DNA of 64,000 nucleotides from the NCBI GenBank assembly GCA_010093605.1, contig MU004187.1:1124018-1188017 (forward strand), read 5' to 3'. Below, piece after piece: positions 7,751 to 45,422 of the stretch. Both the position numbers and the translations under genes were made by a program. Each line of letters opens with the position of its first letter. Within the stretch, counting starts at the first letter, position 1. The notes under the pieces are model-generated. The model was not told where the DNA came from. It did no database searches and saw nothing but the letters and a program-made list of their open reading frames with translations. Source of the stretch: Lophium mytilinum (Eukaryota).

Positions 7751-7774
7751 TCTCTAATAAAAGTCGTTATTAGA
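7738..7774 (+). promoter_or_regulatory. -1 programmed ribosomal frameshift signal at the gag-pol junction
   Basis: Slippery G GGA AAT (7738-7744) in the gag frame, 8-nt spacer, stem tctaataa/ttattaga with 6-nt loop; pol motifs lie in the -1 frame. Confidence 0.75.
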
Positions 7775-12782: not shown

Positions 12783-13880
12783 TAATTTATTTAAATAGTA
12801 AAGAGCTAAAGGGAAGAAAAGAGAGACATCTAATAGCTATAGCTAGTATATTAAATAAGGTAGATATACTACTAGAATAATTCTATTCTAAATATAGAAG
12901 TTAATAAAGTTTATATTTATATAAGAGCTATATCTATTAATAATTATCATTCTCTATATCTTTTTAGCCTTCTATCTAGTCTCTCTTTTAAAGATCTTTA
13001 ACTAGGCTAGGCCTATACTATTATTAGTCTATCTAGATAGTATTAAGGTAAAGAAATAGGCCTATTTATCTAGTTAGAAATCCTCTAGCTATATATCTTA
13101 TATATTATTTATTATAGCTTAATAAATTAGTATTAGAGAAAGTACTATATTATTAGTATAAATAGCTACTACTACTATAATCTACTCTCTATTACTATTC
13201 TATATAATATAGTGTATTTTTTCTAACTTAAATATATATTTACTAAAGATCCTCTTCTTTTTTATAAGCTTTCTAATAAGAAATCCTTTCTTATTTATAT
13301 TATATATATTTTCTAGTAGTATATTATATTAGTCCCTTTTCTAGCCTAGTAGCTTAAAGTAGAGGCTATAGTAGAGAGTAGAATTAGCCTATTTCTATAC
13401 TTTATTAATTAGAAGAAGATAGGCTAATTTTAGATATTTTTTATTTAATTTAACCTATTAAGAAACCTAGTAGATTTCTAGTATCTTTTTAATTAAATTT
13501 AAGGCTAGATTTTATACTATCTAATATATAGGCAGTAGTCCTCTTTCTAAGAGGTTATTAATATATTTAATAAGAGCCTTAGTCTTACTAGAAGAGAGAA
13601 GCTTTTAAGAATTATAGCTATTAGCCTTTAAACCTGTTTTCCCTTAGTATCTTTTTAAGAGCGTGCTTCTTTTAATCCTATACTTAGCACTAACTGCTAT
13701 AAAGTTCTTCTTCTCTATTAAGTTAAGCTCCGCAAACGCAGCTTCAAATTAATCCATTTTTGAAGCCGATCGTGATAAAATTGAGGAAGTTGTGTGGTGT
13801 TGAAAATGAGGGGGAAAAAGCGGTGAGGGAGTATACGGCCGTGCACCAGCTGGTAGCGTGCACGAGCCGGTAGCCACTTC
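12783..13880 (-). mobile_element. Fot1/pogo (Tc1-mariner) DNA transposon, 5' half, RIP-inactivated
   Basis: Minus-strand ATG at 13757; HTH-like KY(G)I.RSTL.KRY.GKT; EN.YN.(DE)KGFLI; (QDG)NRE(W)I; S(GW)TN; (HSTHQLQP)LDVSLFFPL of the DDE_1 domain; truncated at the LTR. Confidence 0.88.
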
Positions 13881-13882
13881 TA
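13841..13882 (-). repeat. Candidate terminal inverted repeat of the Fot1-like element, followed by TA
   Basis: Two tandem 17-bp motifs gctaccggctcgtgcac / gctaccagctggtgcac (minus strand) ending just before TA at 13881-13882; partner TIR not seen. Confidence 0.55.
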
Positions 13883-14236
13883 TTGAGCAAGTTTCAAAGC
13901 CAGCTGGCCGCAGGCGCTGCGCCGCTCGACAATGCATTGAGATCGCGACTTCTTCCTCCACTGTCTTGCTTTGACCGTACCAAAATAATCTCAGGGTTGC
14001 AAATTTGCATAGGATGCTACCATGTGTGAAGCCATGGAGGCCGAAGAGCGTGGGCTTGACCACCACCTAGGGTCGCCGATATGCCAGCTGCGGTGCTCTG
14101 GTCAAGGTTGAAGAACCACTGTTGAGTTGACGACCCGTCTAATGACTCTTATAAAAGCAATTGCGCACCCAAAACATGATACATCTTCAAGCAATAAGTT
14201 CATTCCTCCTACATTTCCTGCGTTCGAACTGTCAAT

Positions 14237-25971: not shown

Positions 25972-28737
25972 ATGCGGTCCCCCATCTTTCTTCTCCCGAC
26001 GCTTCTGGGGCTTGTTGCGGCACAGACTGAACTTACCGGCATACCGGTACCCACGCAAGAACCGCAACCTTCGGCGACGGAAACTGTGAGCGGGCCTATT
26101 AGCACGGCGAAAGCGTGCGCGCAAGTAGCAGAATTGGTTTCTGATTCGTCCTTTACGAACCCGAGTGTTGAGGCTGAGGTATGTGAAATTTACTATGCGG
26201 GTGAAATAGGTGGATAGAAAAATTGGAACAGCAAGACCAACGTGTGGGTCTTTGTGGCAGTTCGACACCGTCTGGGGCGACCTGGTGCGCTATCAGAGTT
26301 TCTAAAATTGTTGTTTTGCAGATTTTGATAACCTACCATGGGACCTCACCTCAAATGGTGCTAGCCAAGTGTACGCGGCCCCTATGGAGTGTGTATCTAA
26401 AAGACATGAGTCAGAATAGAATCACAGATTCGATTCTCAAGCTTGCTATACGTTAGATACACACCCCATGTAGGGATGTGCACACTTGCCTAGCACTGTT
26501 TGAGGGCCCTGGCACGTAATTAAGAATTGGACATAACAGCTTCAACAAGCTAGAGAGCTCTCTGGGCCACTTCAAGCGGTGTTGGACTGTCGCTTTTTTC
26601 AACAAAACCTAATAGCATCGTGTTGGAATCCAAGGTTGTAGGACTAAATGCTGATAATTGCATATAGTTGGCGCATGCTTGCCTCCTCTCCGTACCATTC
26701 GTATCCGATGCCGGAAACCTCACCATCGAGATGGTCAGGCGCCTAGCGGAACTCCAGTCGACCATTTCGTACCTGAAAAGCCCTCCGGAAGGCTATTCAA
26801 ATGACCCTGTCGATATAATCAAAGGACTGCAAGACATCCAGGACAATATCGGGAAATATAAGGACGAATTCACATTTGAAACGGATATTGCGTCGTTGAT
26901 TGGGCAAGCACACGATGGACACTTCAATTTCAACGGAATGGCTTTCAATGGTGCTTTCCGGTGGCGACGAAGCAGGCAGATTGCTCTCATTTCTGGCTCG
27001 CAAGATGGAGGAATCCCCAAGCTTTATGCCATTCAAGACTTCAACAAAACAAACGCCGGCAACGCCGGCTTCACGCCCTCAGCTGTAACGAAAATAAACG
27101 GTGAAGATGCGGTTACGTTTATTGGCAAGGAAGCTCCACTTTCGACATACCATGATCCGGATACGAGGTGGAATGCTATGTTCTACATGCAAGCTGCCGA
27201 ATCCTATGGATACTTCACGAATCCAAGGTACTACCCTGGTCCAACAACGAACGTTACATTCGAAAATGGGACCGAGCACTCTTATATCAACGCTGCAGTA
27301 GTTCTAGATACTTCGGCATGGAGCTATATCGAGGATGGAAAGACTTTCTACGAGAATTACATCGCTCCTTCGGCTACTGGCAACTCCAAAATCAAGAAGA
27401 GGGACCCCTCTTTCCCGCCTACTCTCCTGGAGCATCCGAGGGATATCGATCTAGCTCTGACAAGACGCGCGGTTCCAATCAACTACCCCCCACCTGCGGT
27501 CAAACATTCCGCATCAGACGTGTACATGGGCGGCTACTTCATCAATGACTACGGAGTGTTGATGATGCAGACTTTCAGCACAGAGTCAGTCACAGATGCG
27601 CTGAAATTCCAATCAGTCATCCAGACATTCATCTCTGAGGCTGTCTCCCGAGGTACCAAGAAGATCATCGTCGACGTGCGTGATAACGGTGGCGGCAAGA
27701 TCTTCCTAGGCTACGACGCCTACAAGCAGTTCTTCCCCACAGAAGAACCCCAACTGCAATCCCGCTACCGCGCTGCCGACGCCAACGACCTCCTAGGCGA
27801 GAAGATCTCCACGCTGAGCTTCAACACCCGCACCGGCGACCTCTTCACATCCCCCTTCAACTACCACTCCTACGACGACGCCGACCTCAAGCCCTTCACA
27901 AGCTGGGACGACATGACACCGCCCGCCTCCTTCAACAACGACAGATTCACCAACCTCCTCCGCTACAACCTCTCCAACCCCCTCACCTCCACCTCGGACG
28001 AATTCTCCATCGGCGTGACCGTAACCGGCTACCTCGACCGCGCCAACTTCACCGCCCAGCCCTTCAAACCCGAGAACATCGTCATCCTCTCCAACGGCAT
28101 CTGCGCCTCCACCTGCTCCCTCTTCACCGAGCTCATGCACACCCAATCCGGCGTGCGCACCATCGCCCTCGGCGGCCGCCCCCAGCTCGGCCCCATGCAA
28201 GCCGTCGGCGGCACAAAGGGCTCCCTCGTGCTGCAGAGCACCTACCTCGCCTCCCTCTCCAACATCGTGCTGCAGGAGTTCGCGACGTCGCAGAGCGAGG
28301 CGGACCACTGGTCTGGGTTCCTGCTCGGCGACTTCGCTATCAACGCGAACGCTGCGAGCGTCAATTTCCAGGACAATATCCGTAAGGGGGATGAGAAGGC
28401 GGGCGTGCCGACGCAGTTTGTGAATGATACTGCGGATTGTAGGCTGTGGATGACGCCGCAGATGTATTTGAATGTGAGCGCTGTGTGGGATGAGGTGGCG
28501 GCGGTGGCGTGGGGTGGGAAGGGGGGTGTTTTGGATGAGGGGAAGTGTGTGGGTGGGAGTGCGACGAGTCAGCAGGCTGCGGCGAGTAGTGCGAGTGTGA
28601 GTGGGGGGAAGGCGAAGCCGACGGGGAGTAAGGGGGCGGCGCCGGGTGTGGTGCCGGAGGTGGGGAGGGTGGTGTGGGTTGTGGGTGTGTGGGTAGGCGT
28701 GAGTTTGGCAGCGGGGATGGGGCTGGTATTGTGGTAA
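25972..28737 (+). CDS. Secreted, probably GPI-anchored S41-family peptidase
   Basis: Exon 25972-26178, 489-nt intron, exon 26668-28737; AHACLLSVPF, DGHF, IIVDVRDNGGG, LSNGICASTCSLF, GGRP.GPMQAVGGTKG; Ser/Gly linker and hydrophobic C-terminus. Confidence 0.92.
26349..26505. repeat. Long imperfect inverted repeat (hairpin or MITE-like) inside the S41 intron
   Basis: Arms of about 52 bp at 26349-26400 and 26453-26505 are reverse complements with mismatches; inner stem agaatagaatc/gattcgattct. Confidence 0.85.
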
Positions 28738-31266: not shown

Positions 31267-31870
31267 TATGGATGTAGATGACGTTAGTTGGGAGATGGTG
31301 GAGTATGTGCCTTGGTCTATGAATGGTGCATGAAGAGAAGAAATTTGAGATTTTAGACGTGTGTTGCAAGGCACGTGACTGCTGTCTGTTTGGTTATTCG
31401 ATGCTGATAAACTAGACGTTCCTTTCGATACCGTATGGTCAAAGTAGATCTATGTCATGGTGTTTTGTGATGCTCCGTCTGGTGTTGTAGAGAGCAGACT
31501 CAAGGAAGAGAGTCTCGATGAGAGGAGACCCGATCGGCGGGATCTCGACCACAGTCTCGGAAAACGCACCCGAAATCGGTGCGCCACACGTATCGATTCT
31601 GCCACCACCACCGTCATCCCGTCCTGTCAGGCCACATGCGGTTTGCCGCATACCATGCCGCTGGATCCTGAGCAGGAATGTACATGTGGCTGGACTGTCG
31701 TGGCCAGCCGAGCCTCACAGTCGAGACGGTGGATGCTCCGCGCGTACAGTGCCCAACATTTCCTTACCGTCCTCAAAGACCCGAGCTATGAGTTATCAGA
31801 TTCCCTTCCCAAGCATTGCCTTTGATTTTTTTCTTCAAGTCTATCGTATCGTTGCCCACAGAGACTTTAT

Positions 31871-33988
31871 ATGGCCAATGACGGCATGTTTCTCCCGTCC
31901 ATACAGGACAACTCCACCCCAACCGCGACATCAGAGGCACAACCAGACTCTCACCATGAGTCAGATGACAGCTCCTCCGACTCATCTACTACAGCCCCCA
32001 CAAAGCGAACCCGCTTGAAAACCTTCGGTAGAAAGACTAAATCCAAAACCAAACGAATCCTCCACATCGATGACACAAAGACCGAGCTCAAAGCCGAGCA
32101 AGACGGCTATCTCAGCGACCTAGAGAACAACCCAGCCTTCAATCCCCCAAAGGTCGTAGAACCCAGCACTCTCGACAAAATCTCTGGAAATCTAAAGGTC
32201 GCTGGCAGCGCCGTGATCCACCCCTTGCACTATGTGAAAAGCAAAACAGCGTCGACGCTGGCGACGACGGACCAGCCCTACTTCTCTGCCGAAGCGGACG
32301 GTGACTTGCTCGACGCGCACGCAGCACTCGGCCGGGCACAGTCTTTCATGAGTGGGAGTAGCAGTGATGACGAAGCCAAAGAAAACGATGTTCAGAAATG
32401 GCAGAAGGTCATTGATGACATCGAAGCAAAACGTGAGATGACCAAGGTTGCATGGACGACGGGGCGGTTCTGCCATAGAGTCAGAGTAATGGCGAAGCCC
32501 GAAGTCAAGTTCCCTGAGAAGAGCACATTCCAAGAGTTCGACGAGAACGGGAAGCTGGTGAGGTTTCAGTATGAAAAGTGGATTGGACATCTATTACTAT
32601 ACATCACACAGGACATGGGGTCGCGGTGTATCGACGACTCCACTGACTTGCCGTTCAATCGGGATGTCCTTGTCCAAAACGTTGAGCGTCTCATCATGGC
32701 TTCTGGGCCGTGGCAGGAGTGGTTGCTTACGCTGAGGAGTATCTACCGATGGGAAGACCCAAAAGTTACTGGGAGGTGGTTTGCGGTTTGGGCGTTGGTT
32801 TGGTATTTGAACTGCACGATATCCTTCACGGTCAGTCCTACCCACGTCCTGAAATCGTATATGAAAAAGTCTGACACTGCTTCAGCTGTGCTACGTCGTT
32901 TTCATCGTCCTCCAAAACCGCTTCACCTCTCAACCCATCGAAAAACTGCGAGCCTCGCACGAAAGGGCCATGGACCGCGGCAAGAGTGCGCTCAAGTTTG
33001 GCGACCTCATCAACCGCCATGGCACAGGCGATTGGATAGACCCTTTAATAGACGGCGTGGGTCCCGTGGCACAAGTCCAACTTGGCGACATCGCGGATCT
33101 CCTGGAGATACTCGTAAATTTCTACAACTGGAAGTATCCACGGTTGACCGCGTATACTATTTTCTTCTTTTGCACTTGTATCACGGTCGGTCTTCTGACA
33201 CCAGCCGATTTCTCGCTCAAGATTGTAACAATGATAATCATATGTAAGTTTACCTCCCTAGTATGATAAGACAACTCAGCTGATTGTGTCACCAGGGTGG
33301 TTCTTCCTCGGACGATTTGTCGCGAGCTATCACCCAAAATACAGACATCTCGTCTCCCCTATCAAATACGTCTACTGGGACATCCCAACACACGGTACGC
33401 TCTCTCCTCCCCTCCCATGACCTAAGCTGATAACAGACAGCGGAATGGGCCTTCACCTACCTCCGCAAAACCGCCCAAGAAGCGCGCCAAAAGATGATCG
33501 AGCGAAAAATCCAACACCAACACGACATCGAAACCCGCCACCACCCCACCTACCAAGGCCACGTCGCGCCCTCGCCAAGCCCAGGTATCGCCGGACACAG
33601 CGACGACGACGACGACGACTGGCACTCCGCCGCCTCCTCCGGCGGCATCCTCGACGAAACCGACTTCCTCTGCTTCCGCTGCAGCCACCACGACGTTGCC
33701 GGCCAGCTGGCGATCTACTCGGACGGCATCCGCTTCATCCGCCGGTTTCCGAAGAAAGAGCTGTGGCGGCGGTCGTTTAGCGAGATTGCCGAGGTGAATA
33801 AACTTACGGGGTCGAGAACGGTGAAGTTGAAGAAGGAGAGGTTGCTGGAGTTTACGTTTGTGGGCGGGGTCGTGGAGAAGCTGGAGGATGTCAAGCGGAG
33901 GGATGAGGCGTTTAATGCTGTTATTGGGTTTTCGGGGCTGCATTGGCAGCAGTTGCAACCTAGGCATGATGCTAATGTCAAGACTTGA
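31871..33988 (+). CDS. Membrane protein with central TM segments and C-terminal GRAM/PH-like domain (DUF3292-like)
   Basis: Exons 31871-32830, 32886-33243, 33296-33394, 33441-33988 with canonical splice sites; IYRWEDP..T, NFYNW..PRLT, WDIPT.AEWAF, RDEAFNAVIG. Family label tentative. Confidence 0.75.
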
Positions 33989-34434
33989 GTGGCGAGGTAC
34001 TCAGGATAAAAGGTTTTTTATACTGTCAGGTAGCTACTACCCTGTCTCCACTGTTAAGTCATAACTAGACTGTCATATCTTATCGGAAGATTCCATGGAG
34101 TAGCGAGCGCGCTGGTTGCAATGAGGCAGGACGACATCAAGATACGAACCATGTATGGCCCATATACTGGCAGCGTGCTAGTTGAACATCATAGCGGATC
34201 CTTTAGGTCACAGAGTAGCCAGAAATAAACGTCCGCTCAAGCCTCAAAGTAAGTCTGTAAGGGGAAAGAGTCAGGAGCAAGAGGTGTGAGGTAAATGTAA
34301 AGATCGAATGAGTCGCAATTATAGTCATATGATGTTGGGATGGAGCCATATTATTAAGTACATACATACATATTAATCATCTAGACAAGCCTATCCCTTA
34401 TGTCCCACTCGACCGCATGACCCAATGCCCTCTT

Positions 34435-37434
34435 TCACTTCGGTTTAGGACAACCCAGATTAGCATTACCAATAGTCGGCACGCAGACGCCCGTCCGCAA
34501 TGAAGTGTCGAGCTTCGAGAGACTCGAGATTCCAGAGAATTTCGAATTTGAAAACCCAGACGCCGCCTTGCTCTCTTGGGTGCTCAGAATGTTGCAGAAC
34601 GTATTGGCGCCCCGACAGCTCCCATCGCGATTCTGGCAAGGAGGGAGGCATGCGTTCGCAAAGATTTTCTTGTTATTTGAGCACGTAACGAGGATCTGCT
34701 TGCAGAGGGAAATCTCATCGTCGCAGGTCCCTTTGCTGTTACAGGCCTGGATCTCGGAATTGCGTTTGGGGACCCCCTTCCCATCGGGCAGCCCGCCTGT
34801 CGGCTCGAAGTTGAAGTCCACGTGCTCCTCGACGTGTAGGGTAGGGGCTTGCGCTGTTGCTGGCGGCGGAGGCTTTGGTGTGCCTTGATTGGTTGAAGCA
34901 GCATAGCCAGTCGAGCCTTCGACGCAAAGTGACTCGTCATTCCAAATGGCAGCAGCGGCATCTCTCCATAACTTTTCAATGTTGTAGATGTTCGCGATGG
35001 TGTAGTAGATACGACAATTGGCCGCTTCGTACTTGAATTGTAAAGGCGTGGTGTCGTTGGCGCGGACTTGATCTCGAAGGTTTATACCAGCGAAGATTGT
35101 ATAGACGCCTGGATCTCTCACTTGCGGCAGCGAGGAGTTGGCTGTTTGGTTGATGCTGCTAGCGAATTCGATATCACCGTCGATAGTATCTGCAGAGTAG
35201 GCCCGAGCTCCCCGGTTTCCACTAGCGGCTTGCATTGGGCCTGTTGAGGGCCGTCCGCCAGCAACGACTGTGCGAACGCCAGCCTGCGTCATCATTTCCA
35301 GTAAAAGCGAACACGTCGATGAACATGCGCCATCAGTTAACTAATATATATGTTAGTAGATTTTACGCGCACCGTTTGTGAACCGAAAAGGAACTTACAA
35401 TGACTATGTCTTCGGCCTTCCATGGCTGTGGCGTCGAACTTGGATTGACCGGGTCGTATCCGGACGGAATCCATCCGTCGAACGCAGCTATGCTATATCT
35501 TGTGTCTGAGAGGTTGTATTGCTCCTGGAGAAAATCTCGCGTTAAGAATAACCCTTATACGAGTATTTGATAGACTTACGGTTAATGAAAACTCATCGTC
35601 GTGGACCCTCAAGGGGCCGAAGTACTCTGCCCAGCTAGTGAATGTCTGATTCGTCTCGGCATTAATGCGATCCGTAACGACCCACTCGTTAGCAGCAAGA
35701 GAGTCTTTGGTGAAGTCATCGTCCGATAACGAATCCCAGTATCTGGTGGTGGCACCTCCGATAATGTTGGCGAGGATATGGCTACGTCTTCTACTACCAG
35801 CGAAAGGATCGGTCGTGGGGAAGAACTGCTTGAATGTATCGAAAGCTAGATTCACGTTTCCCCCGCTATTTTGCTGAAGATCGATAATGACTCTGGATAG
35901 GTTGGCCGCTGTGGCGCCAATTATGAATTCTGAGACCGCCAGAGAGAAGTTTCCGACGTTCCAGTCAAATTGATCAAAGTCTGGGATGCTGAGGACCCCG
36001 GTAGATATGTTGTGGAGGTAATAACCGGAAACAACGCCACCTCCATCGATGGAGAGGTCCAGCTGGACAACATCTGGATTGGCAGGGTATGCGCCTAAAC
36101 TGGCATCGAACCAAGACTCCGGCGCGGGCGTGCCTGTGGGCGTTGCACTTGGAACTGCACTGGGAACTGCACTGGGGACGCTGGAGGGTGTGGCGGGCTC
36201 ATACGACGGTGGGAGAAATCCAAGTACAAAGTAGTTGTAGAAATCACCCCCGGTCGTCAAAGGTCCTGTTGGGCTGGGATTGTTGTAGATAGCAAGCCAG
36301 ATGGTTTCTAGCTGGGTGTCGTTCGCGAATGAGAAGGTCAGATTTTCACCTGGATAGAAAGTCGCGCCACCGGAAAAGGTGTTTAAAAAGCCTTGAATAT
36401 CAAGCGCGGGGTTGCTCATCAGTTGATTCCAGTCCGCGTGGGGTTCGACTGTGCCAATGGAATTGAGGGCTGCAAATCGGGTCAAGTAGTCCACAACATT
36501 CTCGCCGTTGATTTCCGTGATTGGAAACGGCTCCCAACCTTGGTCTGGGCTGTCGAGTATATCCTCTACGCTAGTATTAGCAAAAGCTCGGGGAGCTCCG
36601 TCGTGCTTATGTGTGCACAGATCTATGGCGAGAATGGTGATGGGTGGGGATGCGCAGTGCACGTACGTGTAATGTACACCTTGGGTGCTTCTTTGCCGTC
36701 TTTTGACACGGACACTATTTCGTAGGGGCTAGCAAAAGAGAAGGCCGACAGCACTCCGGCCGTGAGGTCGACATGGGCATCATGGAAAGCATACACGAGG
36801 AGCTGGAGATCGGCCTCAAAAGCATACTGGCTCTTGTAGGTACCGGCGGTGATGTTCTGCTGGATCAGCTGCAGACCCTCAAGAACATCTACCGTGGGCT
36901 GCTGATAGCCAGCAGGGGGATCTTTGAGATAGGCAATGGTGCTCTGGAACTGGAAAGTGGTGTTGAGGTAGTCGACGAAGCGAGTTGCGACTGCCGGATT
37001 GAAGGGGACCGACGACAGACATGCGTAGGCATCGCTAGCCCAAAACAGGACGGAACCTACCAACGTTAGCAGAATCCTAGCGTCTTCGAAACCATCTCCT
37101 TACCATTGTTCACGGCATCTATGATATCGCCACATATCGTATCGGCTGGGTTTGCGGCAGTAACCGTTGCTGTCGGGGTATCCTCGATTGACGAGCTCGA
37201 TATAGCACTGGATGCAATGGTGATGGCAGCGGCGTTGGCGGACACTGTGGCGCTTGATATCTGCGATGAAAGGCTCTGTGGGGGAGCGCTCGAGCTCGCT
37301 GGGCTCCCGGCTAATCCTTTTTTGATGTACGCGGCTATGTTATTCGGGTCGCGCGCAAGGGGCCGTGGGATCGACTTGCAGAGCGCGAAGCTCACGAAGC
37401 ACAGAAGCACCGTGAGGCGGCAAAAGAACGACAT
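34435..37434 (-). CDS. Secreted S41-family peptidase with C-terminal 10-Cys domain
   Basis: Exons 37434-37104, 37056-36667, 36565-35580, 35524-35399, 35340-34435; signal peptide; AYACLSSVPF, HDAH, IIDLQQNSGG, LTDGACSSTCSL, GGRPSTGPMQAASGNRG. Confidence 0.92.
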
Positions 37435-38134
37435 GTGCAAACAGGAACGATGGACGTCGGCCGCGATGCCATGGCTGCATGGCTATTATACATATTTGAG
37501 CCTCGAGGTAGGGCAGTTGCGTCTGCTGCCTGCGCCGGCTCGGCCCTTAATTTCATATTCAGCCACAAATCCGTCTCGGGTCCAAAATAAGGAAAAGGTG
37601 TAATAGCCAAGCCAAGTATAGCCTTAACAGCTGGTTAGCGTACTGGTGGTTACAACGTAATCTACGGTACTGCAAGCTAATGGCAGAGATTTCATTGGTT
37701 GAAATCGCTTTTGCAGGGTCAGAAAGCCTTTGCTACGCGGTATTTACGAGATATACTAACCGCAGTAGGTGCTAGCTAGCTGTACTTGGGCCCATCACAC
37801 TTTCGGGTGATATTGGGGCCACAAGGCTGATCCATAATCATTGTGATAGAACTTGACTGGGCCCGAGTATGTCAGTGGAGCCGAGTGCTCACCGGTTTTG
37901 GCCCCATTTCCAACACCACCGAGCGCTTCGTGCCGTGTGGAGTGGCACTACAGTCCGTGCAGAGGCTTGGGGGCCAAACCCCCCTAGGCGTGCATGGTTA
38001 GCGTTCATGCGGCCTGGCGGACCCCTCCCGTCGAAGCTTATGTTTCCTCGCAACGCCTTCATAAAACTCCGTCTGGAACGGCTGAGTTGCTACTTGCTTC
38101 ACATCTGGTTTGTCATTGTGGCGTTGTGTTTGTC

Positions 38135-39840
38135 ATGGCCAATCCCTTTGCCATTCGCGCTTTGGCACATCCAGCCATCGCAGAGACGTACCCTTTGTCG
38201 ACGGACATCTACCGAGAGCTATACTCATTCTTCTTCTCGTCTAAAGAATTCCTTCGTTGGTGTGGATCTGAGTGCCCCTGGCAGCTACATTGCTATGGGG
38301 GCCCAGGTTCTGGTAAGGTAATGACAACACAGTCGGGCAGTTCTCAGAGCTGTGGTAGCAAAACCCTGTTGTTGACGGTGACGACAGACCACGCTATGTG
38401 CGCTTGTGGTCCAACATCTCCAAGCCCACGCGGAGAACCCCGAAGTGGTGTCTGCGTTTGTCCAAGCCGATGTTCTTTCTAATGAGACAATTTTCCTTGA
38501 GGACTTCCTCGCCACGGTCTACCACCAGGTCCATGCATTTGGACGCGTTGAGTATAAGTCTGTGGACCTTTTCGACAAGTATGAGGATGCGTGTCAGGCC
38601 GGAAGAAGATCAGCTGTCCGCATAGAGCTGCTTCGCGAAGCCCTGCATGCAAGTTTCTCTCAATCCGCGCCCTGTTTTTTGGTTATGGATGGCATAGATC
38701 GATGTAGTGCCGCTCTTAGACTCCTCATTGAGCGCGAGCTTCAAGACCTGCAGTCACTCGGTGTGCGAATCATGGTCTCAGCGCGCCTCCGCGTCTTTGA
38801 GAAGCCTTTGGAAGCCACGTGTGACACTGACGAAACTGACGATGTCCTGAAGCTATTTCTTGAGTGTTCGAAATGTGAAGAAACAGTGCTTTGCTTCCCT
38901 TGCAAAGAACGAGGAGAAGTGTGCCCCATATGGTAAGTCATCTTATCTTTCGGAACAGGCTCAACCTTATTTTCACAACAGCGAAACTGCCGAATATCTT
39001 ATTGAGTCCTACGATATTGTCAACTTCGGTATTGGCCAAATACCCCCCCAAAGCATGCGGGATTTTGTCGCCTGGGATCTTGAAAAGGAACACGGTGACC
39101 TTGGCCTGAAGAGTTCATGTCACGATAAGCCTCCTCTATCTTCGCTCGGGGCTCTCATTCTTCGAAATCAGGATGGAAGTACTCCACAGAGTCTCCTAGA
39201 GCGCATTCTTGAGCAAGCAGAAAACAACATAGGTATTGCAAAGCTCAGATTGGACAACTTCCACAATGCACAATCTCTTGAAGACGTTGAGTCGATTGGA
39301 GACCGCCTACCTCCAAACATCGTATTTCAATTCGATACCGCTGTCAGAAACATCGAAACGCAACCTGCTAGTCAGGGCGATCTTGGCTTGCGAGCAATTG
39401 CCGCTGCTGCTGAGAACAATGCTGGAGTCCCTGCAGCCAATGTTGAAAGATGGCTGCGGCCGAAGTCCTCTAAATTCCCTCCTAGGAGCGTCGAGGACGT
39501 TCTTCAGTCAGCGAACGGCTTTCTCATCTCTGCAAACATGGAAGAAGAAAACATCCGTATTTACCATGCGAGTTTCTTCATGTATGTCGCCCAAAACTAC
39601 AACGCATCGCTTCTGTGGGCTAGGTCGCAGTTACATTTCGACAGAGCGTTTCGCTCACGCACCAATATTTCGACACTGATGTCCGAGACCAAGATTAAAA
39701 GTCCTCCGCTGTTCAGCCGAGTTCTCAGCTTTGACTCCAGCCCAAGGAGCGATGAATCGGATAAGGGCAGTCCATCGATATTGTCCAGAAGTTCTACCAC
39801 TTCTTACTTTGTTGGAGCCCGACGTCCCACCAACGGTTAA
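38135..39840 (+). CDS. NACHT-type P-loop NTPase with inserted ZZ-like zinc finger (528 aa)
   Basis: Exons 38135-38317, 38388-38932, 38982-39840; splicing builds Walker A LHCYGGPGSGKTT; Walker B FLVMDGIDR; IMVSAR; CDTD..CSKC..CFPC..CPIC; helical and winged-helix-like remainder. Confidence 0.85.
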
Positions 39841-40091
39841 TGCATACAAAACAACCAATCGTTTTACAAGGGGCGGCTCCTGGTACTCCCGTTTGATTTA
39901 CGGCTTGGCATTTGGCCCCAGATATTGAGGTACGGCGGGTCCTAAAATAGATTACTCTAATCGGCCCTGTGGTGTGCGCCCGTTCCGCCCCCACCCATCA
40001 ATAAAGGCACCCACCCGTCCACATGCATGTGCCGCTTACCTAGTAGGCCACCACAATTTCAGCTCCACCCGAAGGCAACGCTCCTGCTACA

Positions 40092-42390
40092 ATGTTATGC
40101 AGATTCTGCATTGACAATGTCTTGATGTCTGGGAAATCATGGGGCTACCATCGAAAAAAGGTCGAGAAACGGGAGAGAGCTGCATTGGAGAAATGCGTGT
40201 TTTGTTCCACCCTCATAAAAGATGCTGGGCTCGCTGAGCATGGCAAAGCTTGGCCATTGTACCGATGGAGCATGCGCTTTCCGGGTCGAACTCGGGAGAT
40301 CATCCACTCGATTGTGATCACCTTCCGTCTGATACCGGAAGAGGACTCGAAAGATTTTCGCCCGGGTTTTGCTGCAAGTCCTGATCGTGTGTTCTACATG
40401 TTCCCCGAGGAAGGTGTGTGTGCTATCGCATTCTGGAAGGGAGCTACTGATACTTAAATTAGAGCTCGGAATCATTCCCAGTATAGAGGACGTCGGTAGG
40501 AGCACAAACTTAGATTCAGCAGGTGCACAGGTCAAGAGCTGGGTCCAGCTGTGCGACAACAATCACGAAGGATGCTCGAAACAGCGGATACAACAAGAAC
40601 GCTACGGCTCACTCCCAACTCGGCTCCTCGACGTTGGCACAGAAAGAATTCCTTGTGTAAAGCTAATTGAGACCAAGAAAACAAAAGTCAGGGGACCATA
40701 TGTCTCCTTGAGCCATTGCTGGGGTCGCATTCTTTTCATTACGCTCACTCCCGAGAACCTAGAATCGTTCAAAGATGGAATTGGGTGGGAAAAGCTCTCG
40801 CGGAATTTCCAAGAAGCCATAACCCTTACGCGTTTCCTCGGCATTTCATACATCTGGATAGATTCCTTGTAAGTATTTCGTTGCCGTAAATTTCCTTAGA
40901 ATAGTCATGTAACCTCAAGCAGATGCATCATTCAAGGTCCCAAGGGCGATTTTCCAGCCGAAGCTCCGTTCATGCATCAGTATTATCGAAATGCCTACTG
41001 TAACATTGCCGCAGCAGATGCTTCCAATAGCGCAGGTGGGCTTTTCAGACGTCGAAACCCTACACACATACTTCCGGATAAGTATAGCGTCGACGATAAG
41101 TCAACAATATTTGGAGATAAGAAATGGAGGATCGTTAATCAAGACATATGGCATACCCAACTGCTGAAGACTGTAATCTATACCCGCGGATGGGTCTTTC
41201 AAGGCAAGTTGTACAGTCTCAAGTACATAGTGAATTGCATCTCACTGACTTACCTAGAACGGATGCTCGCCCCACGCATCATTCACTTCGCTAGAGACCA
41301 GATCTTCTGGGACTGCCCTGAAATGAGTGCATGTGAGGCTTTCCCATCTGGACTTCCGCAACCACTGGATACCGCTGCGGCCACTGATCGACACTGGCGT
41401 GGAAGACTTCAAGAGACCGGATCTATCCGCCACCACCCTTTAGCCGGAGCTTCGGACGACTCTCTGGAGCAATTCTGGATCTCTGCGGTTCGCAACTATA
41501 CAAGCTGCGATCTCACGAATGGAAACGATAAACTCATTGCCCTTTGGGGCATCGCGAAGCTTGTTCGGGACGCTTTAGAGGAAGAATACGGTGCTGGGCT
41601 GTGGGCATACAAACTTGAAGAGCAACTGGCCTGGAGAGTCTCCGAGTGCACCCTGGACGAGCGTCCTGTGGATCTTCGAGATAACCCGTCCTGGTCTTGG
41701 GCATCTATGAACGGTACAATAGAACTTGCCAATCGCGTAGCACAAGTCGCGTATTATGAGAGAACAGACCTTCACCAAACGCCCAAGCTTGTCGAAGAGA
41801 GGTATTACGTTGTCACAGATCATCATGGGGAGCCAGTGTCGTTCCAATTGATCTACGAGCTGAAGGCCGGCACACCGTCAGGTTCAACTACTGACGGCGC
41901 TACTGGATCAAAGAGACCAAAACCGGGCCGGGGCTATAGCGCTTCGCAAAATGACCCTGACCGTCAACCGCGACTTGGTTCTAAATCGATCGAAATCGAG
42001 GGCTACGTTGGCCATGCAGCTCTTTCGCACAACGGGATTGACAGATGGACTCTCTCTTCACCCGAAGAAGGGAGGGGACTAATCAACTCAAATATTGAAG
42101 TCTTTCCCGATACAAAGCCCAAGGCCCCGGACACTGACTTTATTGTACTATCGGCAAGCAAGACTCCTCTGGACATATCCATGCCCCGGCTGGATGCTTT
42201 GGGCTTTGCAACCGCCTTCCAGTATTCCGGAGTTGGGATCATTCTCCTGCGGACTGACGAGAGCGGTCATTATGAGAGGTCCGGGGCGTTTCGCTTTCGC
42301 AATGTCAGCGAAGAGATGTGGCAGATACTGAGACCTGACACGGGAAACCCTGATAGCTTCCTTGGGGACACGAAGTTTTGGCTGGACTGA
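40092..42390 (+). CDS. HET-domain (heterokaryon incompatibility) protein
   Basis: Exons 40092-40413, 40463-40868, 40923-41203, 41258-42390; LPTRLLDV, YVSLSHCWG, YIWIDSLCIIQ, MHQYYRNAYCNIAA, RGWVFQERMLAPR, DKLIALWGIA, YGAGLW, PSWSWAS. Confidence 0.95.
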
Positions 42391-43227
42391 TAGGCTCACA
42401 AAATGGACAGGCCATTTCAACAATGCTGCGGCTCCGACGGTAGTCACGTGATTCTAATATATCATCCACCACTGAAGGTCCCGCAAAACGTTAGCAATGG
42501 GATATAGACCTTTGATCATAACACGCAGTGCTCATCTCTATTGGACCTAGTCGCGAAATTTAGGCGGTGTATGAGGATACCTAATACTACGGGATGGGCC
42601 AGCTTATGTGATGTTACAACTACATCCGCTGGTCTACGGCGCCCGAAGAAGGGACTTTATCCCCCTTCTGGACTTTAGAAGCAAGTAGTACAGTTTATAA
42701 AACTCAATGCATGACAAAAATCAATACGTGTGCCCTCGCGACTGGGTGGTGCTGCGAACCTCGCCATCCCTTAGACGACGAGAGAAAATTTAGCATTATA
42801 AATTTTTACGCGAGCGCCGCTGCTTGCCTCAACACCATGCGTCAGGCTCGCCGGGGCAGAGCCAAAGTGGCAGCGTCATCGCAAATTTTCAGTTATGAAG
42901 GGGTAATGAATTGGATGAGTGGATCACTCGCCCAGTGTCTCGATGATAAGCCGTACACTAGGCTTGCCCCGGGCCGATGAGAACCAGGGACAGGAAAAGA
43001 CTGCTCTTTCACAGCACCAGATCGCCGCCAACAAAGAGAAGTACAAAGCAGCTCACTTCCCTCGCTCGCACGGTAGGTTCTAGTCATCTCCTATCTGTAG
43101 AACTTTCTATTTTATTTCAGATAAAGCATTGTGGTCGTGACACCGTGCTTCTCACTTATTCAACCTCGCTTCATTCCGATCCGATTTCTATCATCAACGT
43201 ATCAACTTCATCAACTCTAATCTCCCA

Positions 43228-45422
43228 ATGCCCAGCCGGCTGTCAGGGCAGATGGATCCATTTCCGGAGCTCCAGCTACCAGAGTCGCGAGTGCTCATCG
43301 TTATCACTGGTAGGACATTTCAACTCCATCTTCCAAAACAACCATTGACGGCGGCAACAGGCGGCACAATATGCATGCGACGGTCTGAAGACGGTCTTAT
43401 TCCCGTGAGTAGCTCGCACGAAGGACGAAGCGAGTTTCACTTTGTATGCTCCCATCCGTAGAGCCAGTGCACCGTATTAACGGGTCATAGGCGAAGGGCT
43501 TTCTGAGGGCTGCGCTCGCACCACGGCCCTCGTTCAACGACAACTCGTATCAGGACCCACTGGAAATCATCACAGACGACAAAGGAACTCGCAAGGCTGT
43601 CCAAAGCCTGCGAACGCCAATCAGCGCCTATGACCGTCGGGTGCGGTACTCAGTGCTGGAATTCGACGAGCTTCTGGATAGTAGCTCCATCGACGCGGCT
43701 GGCTGGGACCAGATCGCAAGAACTATCTACCGGAACTACCAGCTCTTTGACGGCTTTGTGGTTCTCCATGGCACTGACTCCCTAGCCTACACGTGCTCCG
43801 CACTTAGCTTCATGTTCCAGAACCTAGGTAAGCCGGTCATCCTAACGGGATCTCAGGCACCGATGATGGAGCTGCAAAATGACGCACAGGACAATCTTCT
43901 CTCTTCTCTGATTATTGCTGGCCATTTCATGATACCCGAGGTCTGCCTTTTCTTTAACTTCAAACTGTTCCGCGGCAACCGCACTACAAAAGTTTCGGCC
44001 GAAGACTTCGATGCCTTTGCGAGCCCCAACCTTCGGCCGCTGGCCCAAATATCATCACTCCGGACGAATGTGCAATGGAACCTCGTCTACCGACCGACCA
44101 CAGTTCATCCCTTCAGCATTCAGACTAAACTCGACACGTCCCACGTGGCATGTCTTCGAATCTTCCCTGGAATGAAGCCGGAGATGGTGGATGCCGTGCT
44201 CCGTCTGGAGGGGCTCAAAGGCCTCATACTGGAAACTTTCGGAGCAGGAAACACGCCAGGAGGACCCGATTCAGCCATGACTCAGATTCTCGCGGCTGCA
44301 GTGAAGAGGGGGATCGTGATAGTGAACGTCACTCAATGCCTCAGTGGCAGCGTCAGCCCACTGTACGCTCCAGGCACGGTACTGGGGCGAGCAGGAGTCG
44401 TTTTCGGGCAGGACCTGACTTCCGAAGCGGCTCTCACAAAGCTTGCGTACCTCCTTGCTTTGCCCGACTCAACGCCCGAGGAGGTCGCGAAGCGCATGTG
44501 CATCTCGCTGCGCGGCGAGCTCACCGAAACCACGCGCACGCATTTCGAACACCCCAAGAACGGCAGCCTGACGCCCGAGCTATCCAGCTTGACGGCGCTC
44601 GGATATTCGATCCAAGCGGGCGATCTGCAAGGAGCACGCGACATAATCCGAGGAGAGACCCGCTGGCTGCTGAACGATGCGGACTACAACCTTTCAACTC
44701 CAGTTGTAAGTACTGCTTCCCATTGCCTGAAGAGAAGTGTGCCCGATAGCAACGAGTCGGACTGGTCACAGTCGACGCTTGTATCACCAACGCCTGTGTC
44801 CTGCGCCGACACACCATTCGACGCACAAAGCCTGACGAGAAAAATTCACCAACTCTCCGGTATCGGGCAGGGTCACTGCAGCGGGTGAGGACGGACGCTG
44901 CGATTAATTCGAAACGGTGCAACGGCATTATCTCTGCGCAGAATGGCGCCGACGGCGAGACTGTGCAGCTCCATTCACAGGGCTGCAAGGCTCGCTAAAG
45001 CACCCTGCTGGCTCCCTCATTACTATATCAGCTGCACATCACCTGCTCGCTGCCTCCCGGAGCTGATTCCGAACGAACATTACACCTATCGGGCCAAGAG
45101 CGCGTACAAGCTTTTTTCGTTACATGACAGAAAATGCTGACTTGGCCGTGCGCAACAGCATCTCGCGGCTACCGGGCCAAATGTCGAAATACTCAAAGAC
45201 TTCCTCGAGCAAGGCGCGTCGGTCCACTTACGCAACCGCGAGGGCCACACACCGCTGTACTTGGCAGCGCACTCGGGCCTGGCTGGTCATGTGCAGATTT
45301 TGACGGATGCCGGCGCCCATCTGCACTCGGACGAGATGGCAGCGGCACGGTTGCATGCCGAATCGGACGGCGACGCGGCAGTGTGGGCCACGGCGGGCGT
45401 GAGTGGTGCTGAGACGGGCTGA
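43228..45422 (+). CDS. Type I L-asparaginase with C-terminal ankyrin repeats
   Basis: Exons 43228-43310, 43361-43404, 43491-44705, 45159-45422; ITGGTICM, HGTDSLAY, LTGSQ, LETFGAGN; ankyrin segment TPVHLAA..GASVHLRNREGHTPLYLAA. Confidence 0.93.

Follow-up and report, generated by a model that had tools for sequence, protein, structure and literature searches.

An S41 peptidase gene adjoins a NACHT-HET gene pair in Lophium mytilinum and other filamentous ascomycetes

Do three neighbouring genes in a window of 64,000 nucleotides of Lophium mytilinum DNA (the whole stretch analysed here) belong to one functional unit, and of what kind? An earlier note on this window had described a secreted S41 protease gene, a NACHT NTPase gene and a HET gene, and had suggested a cassette for non-self recognition or defence. 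Sequence and RNA contigs showed that the positions and spacing of the three genes had been given correctly to the base.

The three genes and their products

The locus is organized as follows.

34435-37434, minus strand: S41/CPAF-like peptidase gene, 912 codons, five exons; ATG at 37434 and stop at 34435, read from the sequence
34435-35340, 35399-35523, 35579-36565, 36667-37054, 37102-37434, minus strand: S41 exons in plus-strand coordinates, junctions within 2 nt either way
37435-38134: intergenic region between S41 and NACHT, 700 bp, divergent promoter
37815-37821 (plus), 37899-37905 (minus), 37970-37976 (plus): GGGGCCA sites of this region, all within 160 bp
38135-39840, plus strand: NACHT-type (Pfam NPHP3_N) NTPase gene, 528 aa, three exons
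38135-38317, 38388-38932, 38982-39840, plus strand: NACHT exons, introns confirmed by RNA
38820-38985, plus strand: Cys-rich insert of the NTPase, a putative zinc module, at residues about 206-243, across intron 2
39841-40091: spacer from NACHT stop to HET start, 251 bp
39913-39919, minus strand: GGGGCCA site in the spacer, found by motif search
40092-42390, plus strand: HET gene, 713 aa, four exons
40092-40413, 40463-40868, 40923-41203, 41258-42390, plus strand: HET exons, introns confirmed by RNA

The S41 and NACHT genes thus diverge head-to-head, and HET follows NACHT on the same strand. Each of the three is expressed and properly spliced: the nine modelled introns (four in S41, two in NACHT, three in HET) are skipped exactly by spliced RNA contigs (run X1), the four of S41 by a single contig, and the HET intron 41204-41257 is of the GC-AG type, as confirmed by RNA. 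Between the divergent genes, RNA cover is absent in the 37612-37912 bin and the NACHT RNA contig begins near 38060.

The NACHT protein, P0001, is identical over 285 aa (100%) to a 528-aa database protein and matches NPHP3_N with 64 bits (Pfam, cut-off 24.8). It carries a Walker A motif, GGPGSGKTT (residues 55-63), a Walker B motif, LVMDGID (D162, D165), a helical and winged-helix part at 300-460 and a disordered tail at 465-528. Its AlphaFold2 model (mean pLDDT 80.2, pTM 0.79) matched best CED-4 (Foldseek, E 4e-6) and wheat Sr35, that is, the NODs of CED-4 and plant resistosomes. We therefore describe it as a NOD-only STAND protein, having neither an N-terminal effector domain nor repeats. Across 17 relatives, both Walker motifs are invariant, as are the Cys residues of the putative zinc module with one near-exception. 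The insert reads C206 ... C221-x2-C224-x5-C230-x2-C233-x6-C240-x2-C243, six of these Cys being invariant and the seventh nearly so, and is followed by a family motif, W-D-L-E-x-E-H-G-D-L-G-L ... K-P-P-L-S (residues 274-299). The earlier note had given this protein a ZZ label. The Cys-rich insert is real, but Pfam does not bear out the label, returning no ZZ domain at E <= 1 in the NTPase or in the five fused relatives scanned; one fused relative gave a weak match to Zn_ribbon_6 (E 0.0011).

The HET protein, P0005, is a 100% match to a 713-aa database protein. A zinc-like motif (C3/C6/H20/C35/C38) at its N-terminus precedes the HET domain (residues 187-337; 93 bits, Pfam cut-off 22.5), after which come a conserved extension to about residue 490, a variable region and a beta-rich C-terminal domain ending in F-W-L-D. 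Among 20 relatives, the blocks YxxLSHxWG and WxDxLCIxQ, E256 and RGW are invariant and Q336 and E337 at least 90% conserved, the C-terminal region being the least conserved part. Published work, as far as the portions consulted go, describes HET as TIR-related, sufficient for cell death and endowed with a conserved glutamate. The TIR likeness rests on this literature and not on fold comparison of our model (mean pLDDT 64.7), for which Foldseek gave no clear match (best E 0.14) and VIA a best Z of 4.3, with SARM1 TIR at Z 3.2 (rmsd 3.7, 99 residues aligned).

At its N-terminus the S41 protein has a hydrophobic, signal-like peptide; its other parts are a Ser/Thr-rich stretch, PDZ_CPAF_rel (Pfam, E 1e-23), the S41 domain (Peptidase_S41 at 23 bits, slightly below the 24-bit cut-off, with the largest exon scanned alone) and a conserved Cys-rich C-terminal tail. 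The Mytilinidion orthologue P0254 can be aligned over residues 1-931. Neither the motif L-T-D-G-x-C-x-S-x-C nor the C-terminal Cys residues vary among 16 orthologues, and S41 is the best conserved gene of the trio (mean column identity 54%). Hydrophobic, signal-like N-termini were present in all 13 orthologues inspected, judged by eye rather than by a signal-peptide predictor, and no such peptide was seen on the NACHT or HET proteins. As only S41 carries one, its direct contact with NACHT or HET faces a compartment barrier.

Linkage of the trio across fungi

We asked whether the three genes stay together in other genomes. Consecutive protein accession numbers were read as adjacency, a reading that was validated on one control (Lophium KAF2496956/957) and that leaves orientation aside. 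On this basis NACHT and HET adjoin in 5/5 species with both numbers fetched, and S41 adjoins NACHT in 10/10 species tested (9/9 by consecutive accessions, and Bogoriella by neighbouring locus tags).

NACHT-HET, consecutive accessions: Mytilinidion, Lindgomyces, Biscogniauxia mediterranea (two strains), Lentithecium, Dendryphion
S41-NACHT, consecutive accessions: Mytilinidion, Lindgomyces, B. mediterranea (two strains), Delitschia, Clathrospora, Pseudovirgaria, Plenodomus tracheiphilus, Pleomassaria, Lophiotrema (fused form)

In Bogoriella the only HET match among those listed sits on another contig and is weak and partial. In Boeremia (two clusters), Coniothyrium and Neocucurbitaria, the locus tags put HET and S41 side by side or with a single gene between them, and at least 31 of the 73 named non-Lophium HET matches pair with a listed S41 by organism and contig, contigs being equated by size and 120 of the 315 S41 matches being listed. 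Metagenome DNA of 27 related loci gave the same picture. S41 stands head-to-head with NACHT in 12 of the 13 loci whose upstream sequence exceeds 900 nt, and in 12/12 loci where both genes are present; in L024, the 2086 nt preceding NACHT contain no S41. The next gene is HET, of one particular HET subfamily, in all 14 loci with room for it, convergent in 12 and in tandem in two. The flanks behave differently: when the 229 other ORFs of the window were compared with the related loci, the sole match was a distant S41 paralogue, and among 144 flank ORFs of those loci one family only is common to different lineages.

Could these neighbours nonetheless be meaningless, considering that HET and NACHT families are large, expand fast and often sit in variable regions? 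About 117 HET genes per Sordariales genome are reported in the portion of PMC10890737 consulted, where HET counts among the most abundant fungal domains, and the window itself opens with a 14-kb AT-rich, repeat-degraded block. This reading we hold to be practically excluded. It is contradicted by linkage kept in every species tested by accession and in nearly all DNA loci while the flanks are not kept, and by the fusion of NACHT and HET in 35 of 236 fetched relatives; moreover, the trio is surrounded by housekeeping genes (BCS1, Bin3 methyltransferase, asparaginase, ribosomal L19). The adjacency of the trio is far beyond chance. The cassette of the earlier note is accordingly borne out as a unit of linkage, both adjacencies being kept across Dothideomycetes and Xylariales. 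Since the S41/NACHT arrangement is kept head-to-head, a shared promoter is also suggested.

Sequence comparison is again in line with the earlier note: the pairwise-identity matrices of S41, NACHT and HET correlate in eight species (r 0.60-0.84, permutation p <= 0.0025). NACHT identity to Mytilinidion is 42% in Biscogniauxia and 36-49% in Pleosporales, a pattern that does not follow taxonomy, and several genomes, such as Dothidotthia and Boeremia, hold two trios. These identities, similar in two classes, and the duplicated trios would fit a mobile cassette, transferred horizontally between Dothideomycetes and Sordariomycetes rather than held together by function. We consider this improbable as an explanation, because neither terminal direct or inverted repeats around the trio were found in the window, nor a transposase or recombinase ORF beside it among the window ORFs and the flank ORFs of related loci, and because selection on the linkage itself is suggested by the fusions and by inversions of HET inside the cluster. 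Joint transfer and functional coupling are in any case compatible with each other.

NACHT and HET as two genes and as one protein

In the 35 fused relatives both parts lie on one polypeptide, the NOD first and HET after a disordered linker, and without repeats. For example, residues 1-521 of P0001 correspond to residues 24-539 of the Lophiotrema protein P0058 (32% identity, E 8e-89) and residues 2-713 of P0005 to its residues 589-1324 (41% identity, E 5e-168). The HET part of the fused proteins begins at HET residue 1-2, with one exception, the partial row P0056. Fused and two-gene forms separate into two clades in the NACHT tree (SH-aLRT 100), and the label changes at minimum 3 times versus about 18 in shuffles. 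As the genes are fused in the sister clade, the NACHT and HET genes of the window look like halves of one functional unit; fusions and kept adjacency thus uphold the pairing proposed by the earlier note. Its further idea, that a canonical effector-NACHT-repeat NLR was split here, has to be abandoned, because the fused relatives run NACHT then HET and are repeat-less. The two-gene form being an old separate clade, the event between the forms may have been fission or fusion.

Considering these fusions, the short spacer and the single RNA contig that spans both genes gaplessly, we asked whether the two-gene model might be an annotation artefact, due to a missed intron or a sequencing frameshift, and NACHT and HET one gene here as well. 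Results make this very improbable. The spacer is transcribed and unspliced (RNA contig piece 38981-40411, continuous, no differing letters), and therefore the NACHT stop TAA at 39838-39840 is kept in the RNA, further stops in the NACHT frame precede 40092, and the HET reading frame is shifted relative to that of NACHT. In addition, Mytilinidion has an equal pair (528 aa and 709 aa), the NACHT protein of the window falls in a clade that is wholly two-gene, and HET is on the opposite strand in 12 related loci. The one-gene reading is consequently contradicted by RNA, frames, the Mytilinidion pair and the NACHT tree. No relic of the linkers of fused relatives was found in the spacer.

We also modelled the pair as a complex. 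NACHT 1-470 with HET 1-530 gave a median score of 0.39, compared with 0.00 for the best of three controls, with agreement between runs of at least 34% of contacts and partner pLDDT of at least 71. The mark used is reached by 51/78 solved complexes and 2/108 mismatched pairs, but the range up to 0.60, where our score falls, holds only 5/78 solved complexes and all 4 passing mismatches of 180. The NACHT-HET complex envisaged by the earlier note is thus predicted above its controls, in a range where solved complexes are rare, and gives weak support to the pairing. A search for a short templating motif common to NACHT and HET found none (best E 0.53), and no S41-like piece that could be an integrated decoy was present in NACHT or HET relatives at E <= 1.

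Possible function and relation to known systems

Taken together, the trio is a conserved gene cluster of filamentous ascomycetes and probably one functional unit, of the fungal immune or cell-death kind, and we lean towards a NOD-HET death switch with a linked protease. The NOD module would act as a nucleotide-dependent oligomerization switch, like other STAND/NLR proteins, and would recruit or cluster the HET protein; clustering would turn HET activity on and lead to regulated cell death. As there is no repeat sensor, the likeliest recognition surfaces would be the variable HET C-terminal region, the zinc modules, or both. The S41 peptidase would be coupled to the pair genetically and regulated jointly with it from the shared promoter. 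It may be what is monitored or recognized, on the model of sec-9/plp-1, het-c/pin-c and Bp/Bh; alternatively, it may serve the same response outside the cell. The non-self or defence function, the role of the protease and its substrate, NACHT-HET binding, cell death and NAD+ cleavage are what we infer for the trio.

A real cluster might also serve neither death nor immunity, with NOD-HET as a signalling or quality-control device tied to S41 production, secretion, regulation or a processed peptide. The strong conservation of S41, its head-to-head position, ordinary intraspecific divergence, and S41-like matches in Leotiomycetes and Lecanoromycetes, classes absent among the HET matches listed, would all agree with it; the reviews, as far as consulted, stress that the role of most HET and NLR genes is not known. 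We judge this unlikely, although with a real share of probability, as every HET domain tested so far acts in cell death according to the literature portions seen, and Pfam found no transcription, transport or secretion domain in the cluster. To our knowledge, other fusions of a STAND NOD to HET come solely from death-inducing NLRs.

Strong allelic divergence is typical of het loci. Two strains labelled B. mediterranea have trio proteins that are 97.1, 97.5 and 97.3% alike, thus differing by only about 3% in all three, and Cenococcum-like NACHT copies are 90-100% identical. As similarity between the strains is about the same for each protein of the trio and S41 is well conserved, there is no sign of such divergence. 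A heterokaryon (vegetative) incompatibility locus, where a polymorphic S41 would be recognized by the NACHT/HET of the other haplotype after hyphal fusion, is therefore rather unlikely, S41 being slow-evolving and het genes being, in the portions of the literature consulted, only a few of roughly 100 HET genes per genome. The layout does resemble the two-gene het loci het-B Bh/Bp, het-Z and sec-9/plp-1, and het-B specificity is reported there to be set by the C-terminal domain of the HET protein, here the least conserved region.

The comparisons that follow draw on the portions of the published accounts consulted. Like het-B of P. anserina (PMC10890737), the death switch that we favour has an adjoining partner gene and a HET protein that is not an NLR and whose C-terminal recognition domain is variable. 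There, Bh is HET plus a lectin-fold domain and Bp a small, cytosolic PII-like protein, without a NOD, whereas the trio has a NOD partner and a secreted S41 peptidase, and no lectin fold was recognized in the HET model. NWD2/HET-S and other amyloid-signalling pairs also place NLR switch and executioner in adjacent genes; they use HeLo-type pore formers and a short amyloid motif that recurs at the N-terminus of the NLR and at the C-terminus of the effector, while in the trio no common motif was found, the effector is HET and the NLR is repeat-less. Treble-clef fingers, including 17 ZZ, occur in Sordariales NLRs, in some C-terminal of the NB domain, and are rare, non-canonical and possibly integrated decoys (PMC12258605); the Cys module of the trio lies inside the NOD, is family-wide and is not recognized as ZZ by Pfam.

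In fungal gasdermin/protease clusters (het-Q1/het-Q2; hetB CHAT protease of A. fumigatus) a protease is likewise clustered with a death effector. Their S8 and CHAT proteases are intracellular and cleave gasdermin, whereas the S41/CPAF-like enzyme has a signal-like peptide and HET as effector, and there is no indication that HET is cleaved. Linkage of a HET or NLR gene to a partner gene has precedents: sec-9/plp-1 (Neurospora), het-Z (Podospora), vic2 (Cryphonectria) and Bcvic1/Bcvic2 (Botrytis) join an NLR-like switch to a conserved partner, a linkage kept across genera (PMC11138114). Those partners are cytosolic SNARE/syntaxin proteins, joined to NLRs with patatin or other effectors and TPR/ANK repeats; in the trio, a secreted serine peptidase takes their place.

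The literature searched held no description of an S41-NACHT-HET trio, which would be an undescribed combination among fungal NLR/HET systems. Like HET-NACHT-WD40 NLRs, it couples a HET death domain, described in the literature as the TIR-related executor, to a NACHT-type NOD. Those NLRs run HET, NACHT and ligand-sensing WD40 repeats in one protein; in the trio the NOD comes first and HET second, separate or fused downstream, without repeats, with a zinc module inside the NOD and a protease gene attached.

Gene models and RNA evidence at the trio

Stop-to-stop reading frames, combined with Pfam searches on the pieces, resolved the locus into three multi-exon genes, whose models were then drawn by reading the junctions.

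Genes of the trio (window positions)
34435-37434, minus strand: S41 peptidase gene, from ATG 37434 to stop 34435, five exons, 912 codons
38135-38317, 38388-38932, 38982-39840, plus strand: exons of the NACHT-type NTPase gene, 528 aa
40092-40413, 40463-40868, 40923-41203, 41258-42390, plus strand: exons of the HET gene, 713 aa

Both plus-strand models are 100% identical to database entries from Lophium mytilinum (Dothideomycete), which are 528 and 713 aa long. The S41 and NACHT genes stand head-to-head across 700 bp and the HET gene follows the NACHT gene in tandem after 251 bp; the positions and spacer sizes read in the earlier note were exact. The window is fungal, with a GC content of 27-30% at 1-14,000 and about 50-58% beyond. 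The AT-rich block (1-14000) resembles repeat-degraded (RIP-like) DNA, abuts gene-bearing DNA and lies 20 kb from the trio. No terminal repeats of note, as of a mobile element, flank the trio in the window.

RNA evidence came from run X1, labelled 'RNA?', whose contigs over 34000-43000 splice out exactly the four S41, two NACHT and three HET introns, so that all nine intron junctions were confirmed with zero differing letters. Because the contigs skip the modelled introns exactly, we consider X1 to be spliced RNA. In the divergent spacer, the bin 37612-37912 had zero RNA cover, and the NACHT contig begins near 38060, which favours ATG 38135 as the NTPase start over the upstream in-frame ATG 37994. 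An unspliced contig piece (38981-40411) runs past the NACHT stop, over the 251-bp spacer and across the HET start; therefore, no intron connects the two frames, and an intron joining NACHT to HET, being absent from the RNA, was ruled out. Searching the same spacer for a relic of a fused linker returned noise, the one good match being HET's own LCxFC start.

We also observed that the X1 contigs over S41 and over NACHT-HET extend into the neighbours (31750-34000 and 43000-44400), reaching an ORF at 31826-33244 and an asparaginase gene at 43491-44885. Either transcripts of adjacent genes overlap or the assembler merges them, and such contigs are therefore no proof of a bicistronic NACHT-HET RNA; the read depth of X1 is likewise unsuited to ranking expression among the three genes. 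One HET intron (41204-41257) is of the GC-AG type, 54 nt long, in frame and confirmed by RNA, and its retention would add 18 residues within the R-G-W-V-F-Q-E block. At this block the database model of the Mytilinidion HET protein (P0006) has R-G-W-R-M-L, a difference that probably stems from the intron being drawn differently there.

The NTPase and HET proteins and their fused relatives

Searched at full length against Pfam, the NTPase matched NPHP3_N (PF24883) with 64.2 bits against a cut-off of 24.8 (E 2.2e-17), and the NACHT model PF05729 with 18.2 bits, below its cut-off of 26.7; therefore, the protein belongs to the NPHP3_N branch and is not a direct PF05729 match. Across 17 relatives the Walker A residues G55, G58, G60, K61, T62 and T63 are invariant, as is D162 of Walker B, with D165 at least 90% conserved. 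The AlphaFold2 model (mean pLDDT 80.2, pTM 0.79; residues 465-528 disordered) gave 124 Foldseek matches at E <= 0.001, among them CED-4 (4m9s_A, E 4.2e-6, TMq 0.40) and wheat Sr35 (7xc2_A, E 1.5e-5, TMq 0.42). In this predicted structure, helical and winged-helix domains follow the P-loop core, as in the nucleotide-binding switch (NOD) fold. An atlas search with the NTPase brought up the 85-member cluster to which it belongs, along with generic NPHP3_N/ANK NLRs, and no more.

Pfam found no N-terminal effector domain in the NTPase, in which Walker A is already reached at residue 55 and the 54 residues ahead of it fall inside the NPHP3_N match (33-194). In addition, ANK, WD40, TPR and LRR repeats had no match at E <= 1 in the window NTPase (P0001) and five fused relatives. 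Judged from its sequence, with effector domain and repeats both absent, the protein is not a canonical tripartite fungal NLR.

The NTPase also carries a cysteine module (C206 ... C221-x2-C224-x5-C230-x2-C233-x6-C240-x2-C243), in which six cysteines are invariant and one nearly so among the 17 relatives. Set against the ZZ consensus, the pairs 221/224, 230/233 and 240/243 together with C206 would be compatible with a ZZ-like cross-brace, whose first pair is incomplete in the window protein (C-D-T-D). The ZZ domain itself (PF00569) had no Pfam match at E <= 1 in the six proteins, and Pfam thus lends the ZZ label of the earlier note no confirmation. Following the zinc module and ahead of the helical domain, at residues 274-299 (window region 38954-39031, pLDDT about 90), the 17 relatives share a nearly invariant motif, W-D-L-E-x-E-H-G-D-L-G-L ... 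K-P-P-L-S-x-L-G.

The entire PF06985 profile (1-146) aligned to residues 187-337 of the HET protein, with a score of 93.2 bits (cut-off 22.5). In 20 relatives the HET blocks are invariant at Y187, L190, S191, H192, W194, G195, W239, D241, L243, C244, I245, Q247, E256, R331 and W333, while Q336 is nearly invariant and E337 at least 90% conserved. The N-terminus carries an invariant C3/C6/H20/C35/C38 motif, and the C-terminal end, terminating in F-W-L-D, is conserved; region 490-660 is poorly conserved. The AlphaFold2 model was moderate (mean pLDDT 64.7) and found nothing in the PDB at E <= 0.001 by Foldseek. A wide structure search reached a best Z of 4.3, with Rossmann-like rows only, and its rows for 2'-deoxyribosyltransferase (Z 3.7, rmsd 4.4, 106 aligned) and the SARM1 TIR (Z 3.2, rmsd 3.7, 99 aligned) are too weak for use. 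A TIR-like NAD+ hydrolase activity of HET is kept here as a proposal.

We then looked at relatives of the pair. The last HET exon as query retrieved 88 proteins, several of which, 1,150-1,441 aa long, carry both NPHP3_N and HET. Their N-terminal half is akin to the window NTPase, with the same cysteine module and motifs, and their C-terminal half to the window HET protein, beginning at the same L-C-x-F-C motif. For example, residues 1-521 of the NTPase align with 24-539 of a fused protein from Lophiotrema (P0058; E 8e-89), and residues 2-713 of the window HET protein (P0005) with 589-1324 of the same polypeptide (E 5e-168). An exhaustive profile-free search with the NTPase gave 673 representatives at E <= 0.001, of which 92 reached E <= 1e-30. 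Both parts, NACHT then HET, were present in 35 of 236 proteins; 131 had NACHT without HET, 35 of these reaching 440 aa or more, and 70 had HET alone.

A tree of the NACHT part was built from 58 of the 166 NACHT-bearing proteins, keeping those whose alignment covered the query from residue 100 or earlier to 440 or later. It separated two clades, one of 24 rows, all but 2 of them fused, and one of 34, all two-gene, with an SH-aLRT of 100 and a minimum of 3 label changes vs about 18 in shuffles; the window NTPase lies within the all-two-gene clade. This marks the two-gene form as long-standing and stable and not a recent break, the tree being unrooted and thus neutral between fusion and fission. 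These results show that a NOD and a HET protein, on the one hand, and one NOD-HET polypeptide, on the other, can stand in for each other, and that the two genes are halves of one unit. That NACHT and HET belong together, as the earlier note had proposed, is thus strongly supported by the fusions and by the conserved adjacency described below. The companion idea of a tripartite NLR split into two genes was not borne out, considering that the NTPase is without effector or repeats and that the fused forms run NOD then HET.

Linkage of the S41 peptidase gene with the pair

The third gene scored 84 bits for PDZ_CPAF_rel against a cut-off of 27, and 23 bits for Peptidase_S41 against a cut-off of 24, the latter on one exon. 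PF03572 and PF23658 are precomputed for the 84%-identical Mytilinidion orthologue (P0254) and for most other S41 matches. From these profile matches we assign the protein to peptidase family S41, CPAF-like branch. Sixteen orthologues share an invariant L-T-D-G-x-C-x-S-x-C motif (L628, T629, D630, G631, C633, S635 and C637 in P0254 numbering), which contains a serine that may be the catalytic one, as judged by conservation, and the cysteine-rich C-terminal tail is invariant as well. The peptidase appears to be secreted, as a hydrophobic N-terminus, judged by eye, was present in 13 of 13 orthologues. It is the best conserved partner of the trio. A second S41/CPAF-like gene of the window (26668-28734, plus strand; PDZ_CPAF_rel E 9.5e-32, Peptidase_S41 E 5e-8) is about 30% identical to it and has no adjoining NACHT or HET relative.

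Gene adjacency was read from GenBank protein accessions, which are numbered along the contigs of one assembly, with the window pair (KAF2496956/957) as control. NACHT and HET accessions were consecutive in five of the five species for which both numbers were fetched, namely Mytilinidion, Lindgomyces, Biscogniauxia mediterranea (both strains), Lentithecium and Dendryphion. Using the largest S41 exon as query, 120 of 315 matches were listed, and the best of those listed share contigs with NACHT and HET genes. The S41 accession was consecutive with that of the NACHT (or fused) gene in all nine species tested: Mytilinidion, Lindgomyces, B. mediterranea (two strains), Delitschia, Clathrospora, Pseudovirgaria, Plenodomus tracheiphilus, Pleomassaria and Lophiotrema. 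Locus tags also place S41 (_003934) beside NACHT (_003935) in Bogoriella, and HET beside S41 or one gene off in Boeremia (two clusters), Coniothyrium and Neocucurbitaria. Among the 120 of 315 S41 matches listed, one came from the same organism and a contig of equal length for 31 of 73 named non-Lophium HET matches. The sole HET match listed for Bogoriella, weak and partial, is on a different contig, and HET and S41 contigs differ in length in several Colletotrichum species, some of these being plainly different assemblies. In Dothidotthia, Boeremia, Melanomma and Zopfia the trio, in whole or in part, apparently occurs twice, on separate contigs, which suggests that the whole trio was duplicated as a unit in several genomes.

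Among metagenome contigs, the NACHT alignment picked out 28 loci, one of which (L028, a 23-residue match) was dropped, and the remaining 27 were searched by tblastn with all three proteins. From their differing identities these 27 are estimated to correspond to about seven lineages, including the Cenococcum-like L001 and L002. S41 lay upstream of NACHT on the opposite strand in 12 of 13 loci with more than 900 nt upstream, the only exception being L024 (1-2086), where the 2,086 nt upstream of NACHT hold no S41 and nothing recognisable. In all 14 loci with enough sequence downstream, HET immediately followed NACHT, convergent to it in 12 and tandem, as in the window, in two (L016, L017). A scaffold of the TARA ocean survey (L020, 162-7517) has the trio in full, NACHT on the plus strand and both S41 and HET on the minus strand; therefore, the module is present in a marine-sampled fungus too.

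The surroundings of the trio behave differently from the trio itself: with 229 further window ORFs (80 aa or longer, 14-64 kb) as queries, only the distant S41 paralogue at 26668-28734 matches any of the loci, and among the 144 flank ORFs of the loci a single family was common to different lineages. As flanks are unshared, the linkage is limited to the three genes, and it survives the inversion of HET. Moreover, pairwise identity matrices of the three proteins for eight species were correlated (r = 0.61 for NACHT/HET, 0.84 for NACHT/S41 and 0.60 for HET/S41; permutation p <= 0.0025), at values to which shared species history alone would contribute some correlation, and those of all three proteins deviate from taxonomy alike. 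This is compatible with inheritance and duplication of trios as whole units. The conserved S41/NACHT/HET linkage amid unshared flanks strongly supports the cassette recognised at the outset, whose defence function is putative.

Strain comparisons bear on whether the trio could be read as a het locus. The two B. mediterranea strains are 97.1% (NACHT), 97.5% (HET) and 97.3% (S41) identical, thus differing by about 3% in all three proteins, and neither they nor the Cenococcum-like NACHT copies (90-100% identical) show idiomorph-like divergence, which as thin evidence speaks against that reading.

Proposed working of the trio and comparison with known systems

The nucleotide-binding residues of the NTPase and the signature residues of HET are intact, and all three genes are expressed (X1). 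By established knowledge of STAND/NLR proteins, the NOD would oligomerise upon nucleotide exchange, and the oligomer may cluster the HET protein and thereby activate it; HET is described in the literature as a TIR-related, death-inducing domain. As the NTPase has no repeat sensor, the recognition surface must be elsewhere, and candidates would be HET region 490-660, the beta-rich end of HET and the two zinc modules. In het-B, the counterpart of the HET C-terminal region determines specificity.

We also modelled a NACHT-HET complex, as had been suggested. NACHT 1-470 with HET 1-530 reached a median score of 0.39 vs 0.00 for the best of three controls, with runs agreeing in at least 34% of contacts and a partner pLDDT of at least 71. 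Of 78 solved complexes 51 attain the mark used, as do 2 of 108 mismatches; scores up to 0.60 hold only 5 of those 78 solved complexes and all four mismatches that passed of 180. The prediction thus stands above its controls but, at 0.39, lies where passing mismatches fall, and it gives weak support to a NACHT-HET complex. Neither the NACHT nor the HET protein contains an S41-like decoy at E <= 1, and BLASTP of P0001 against P0005 revealed no common templating motif (best E 0.53). With no short motif in common, their sequences do not qualify the two as an amyloid-signalling NLR/effector pair.

Two roles may be considered for the S41 peptidase. It could be the monitored or recognised partner of the NACHT/HET switch, or it could, being co-regulated, serve the same response outside the cell. 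In het-c/pin-c the partner likewise has a signal peptide. The first option is raised because death switches are known to be linked to a conserved partner gene, precedents being sec-9/plp-1, het-Z, Bcvic1/2 and Bh/Bp. As regards co-regulation, the heptamer GGGGCCA occurs nine times in the 64-kb window, and four of these sites are in the trio's two spacers.

GGGGCCA sites in the spacers (window positions)
37815-37821: S41/NACHT spacer
37899-37905: S41/NACHT spacer
37970-37976: S41/NACHT spacer
39913-39919: NACHT/HET spacer

In related loci, 8 of 25 sites fall within the corresponding promoter regions vs 2.3 expected, a post hoc and not independent test, the motif having been discovered in the same sequences as were scored; it recurs in the S41-NACHT spacers of five of six related loci examined. 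GGGGCCA as a shared cis-element of the trio is a weak lead.

Taken together, it is conceivable, if rather doubtful, that the trio is an ancient, class-spanning, three-gene immune-like module with a new architecture, in which a repeat-less NOD stands ahead of a HET/TIR-like executioner, in one fused protein or as two genes, and the constantly associated secreted S41 peptidase is the trigger or guarded component. If true, secretory-pathway or extracellular events would be linked to an intracellular death switch.

According to PMC10890737, how HET domains kill is unexplained, and of the approximately 100 HET genes in a genome most have no role assigned to them. As a HET system the trio is conserved, simple and amenable to experiment: one switch-plus-executor unit exists in a natural fused and a natural two-gene form, with no repeat sensor as a complication, and its obligate third partner is a secreted S41 peptidase, a kind of protein without earlier ties to fungal NLR/HET biology. 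The conservation pattern is unusually clean. As the trio is kept across two classes amid reshuffled neighbours, selection holds the three genes together, and therefore HET activation and the part of the protease become directly testable.

In the main text of open-access papers and preprints we found no literature linking an S41 peptidase to fungal NACHT, NLR or HET genes, nor a NOD-then-HET architecture. These sources describe NLRs built as HET-NACHT-WD40, HET proteins that have a C-terminal recognition domain and a linked partner, NLR/effector pairs connected by amyloid signalling, clusters of protease and gasdermin genes and, rarely, zinc fingers on the C-terminal side of fungal NB domains. 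Compared with these systems, we rate the repeat-less, inverted NOD-HET module, fused or two-gene and with an obligate secreted-protease partner, as a new variant.
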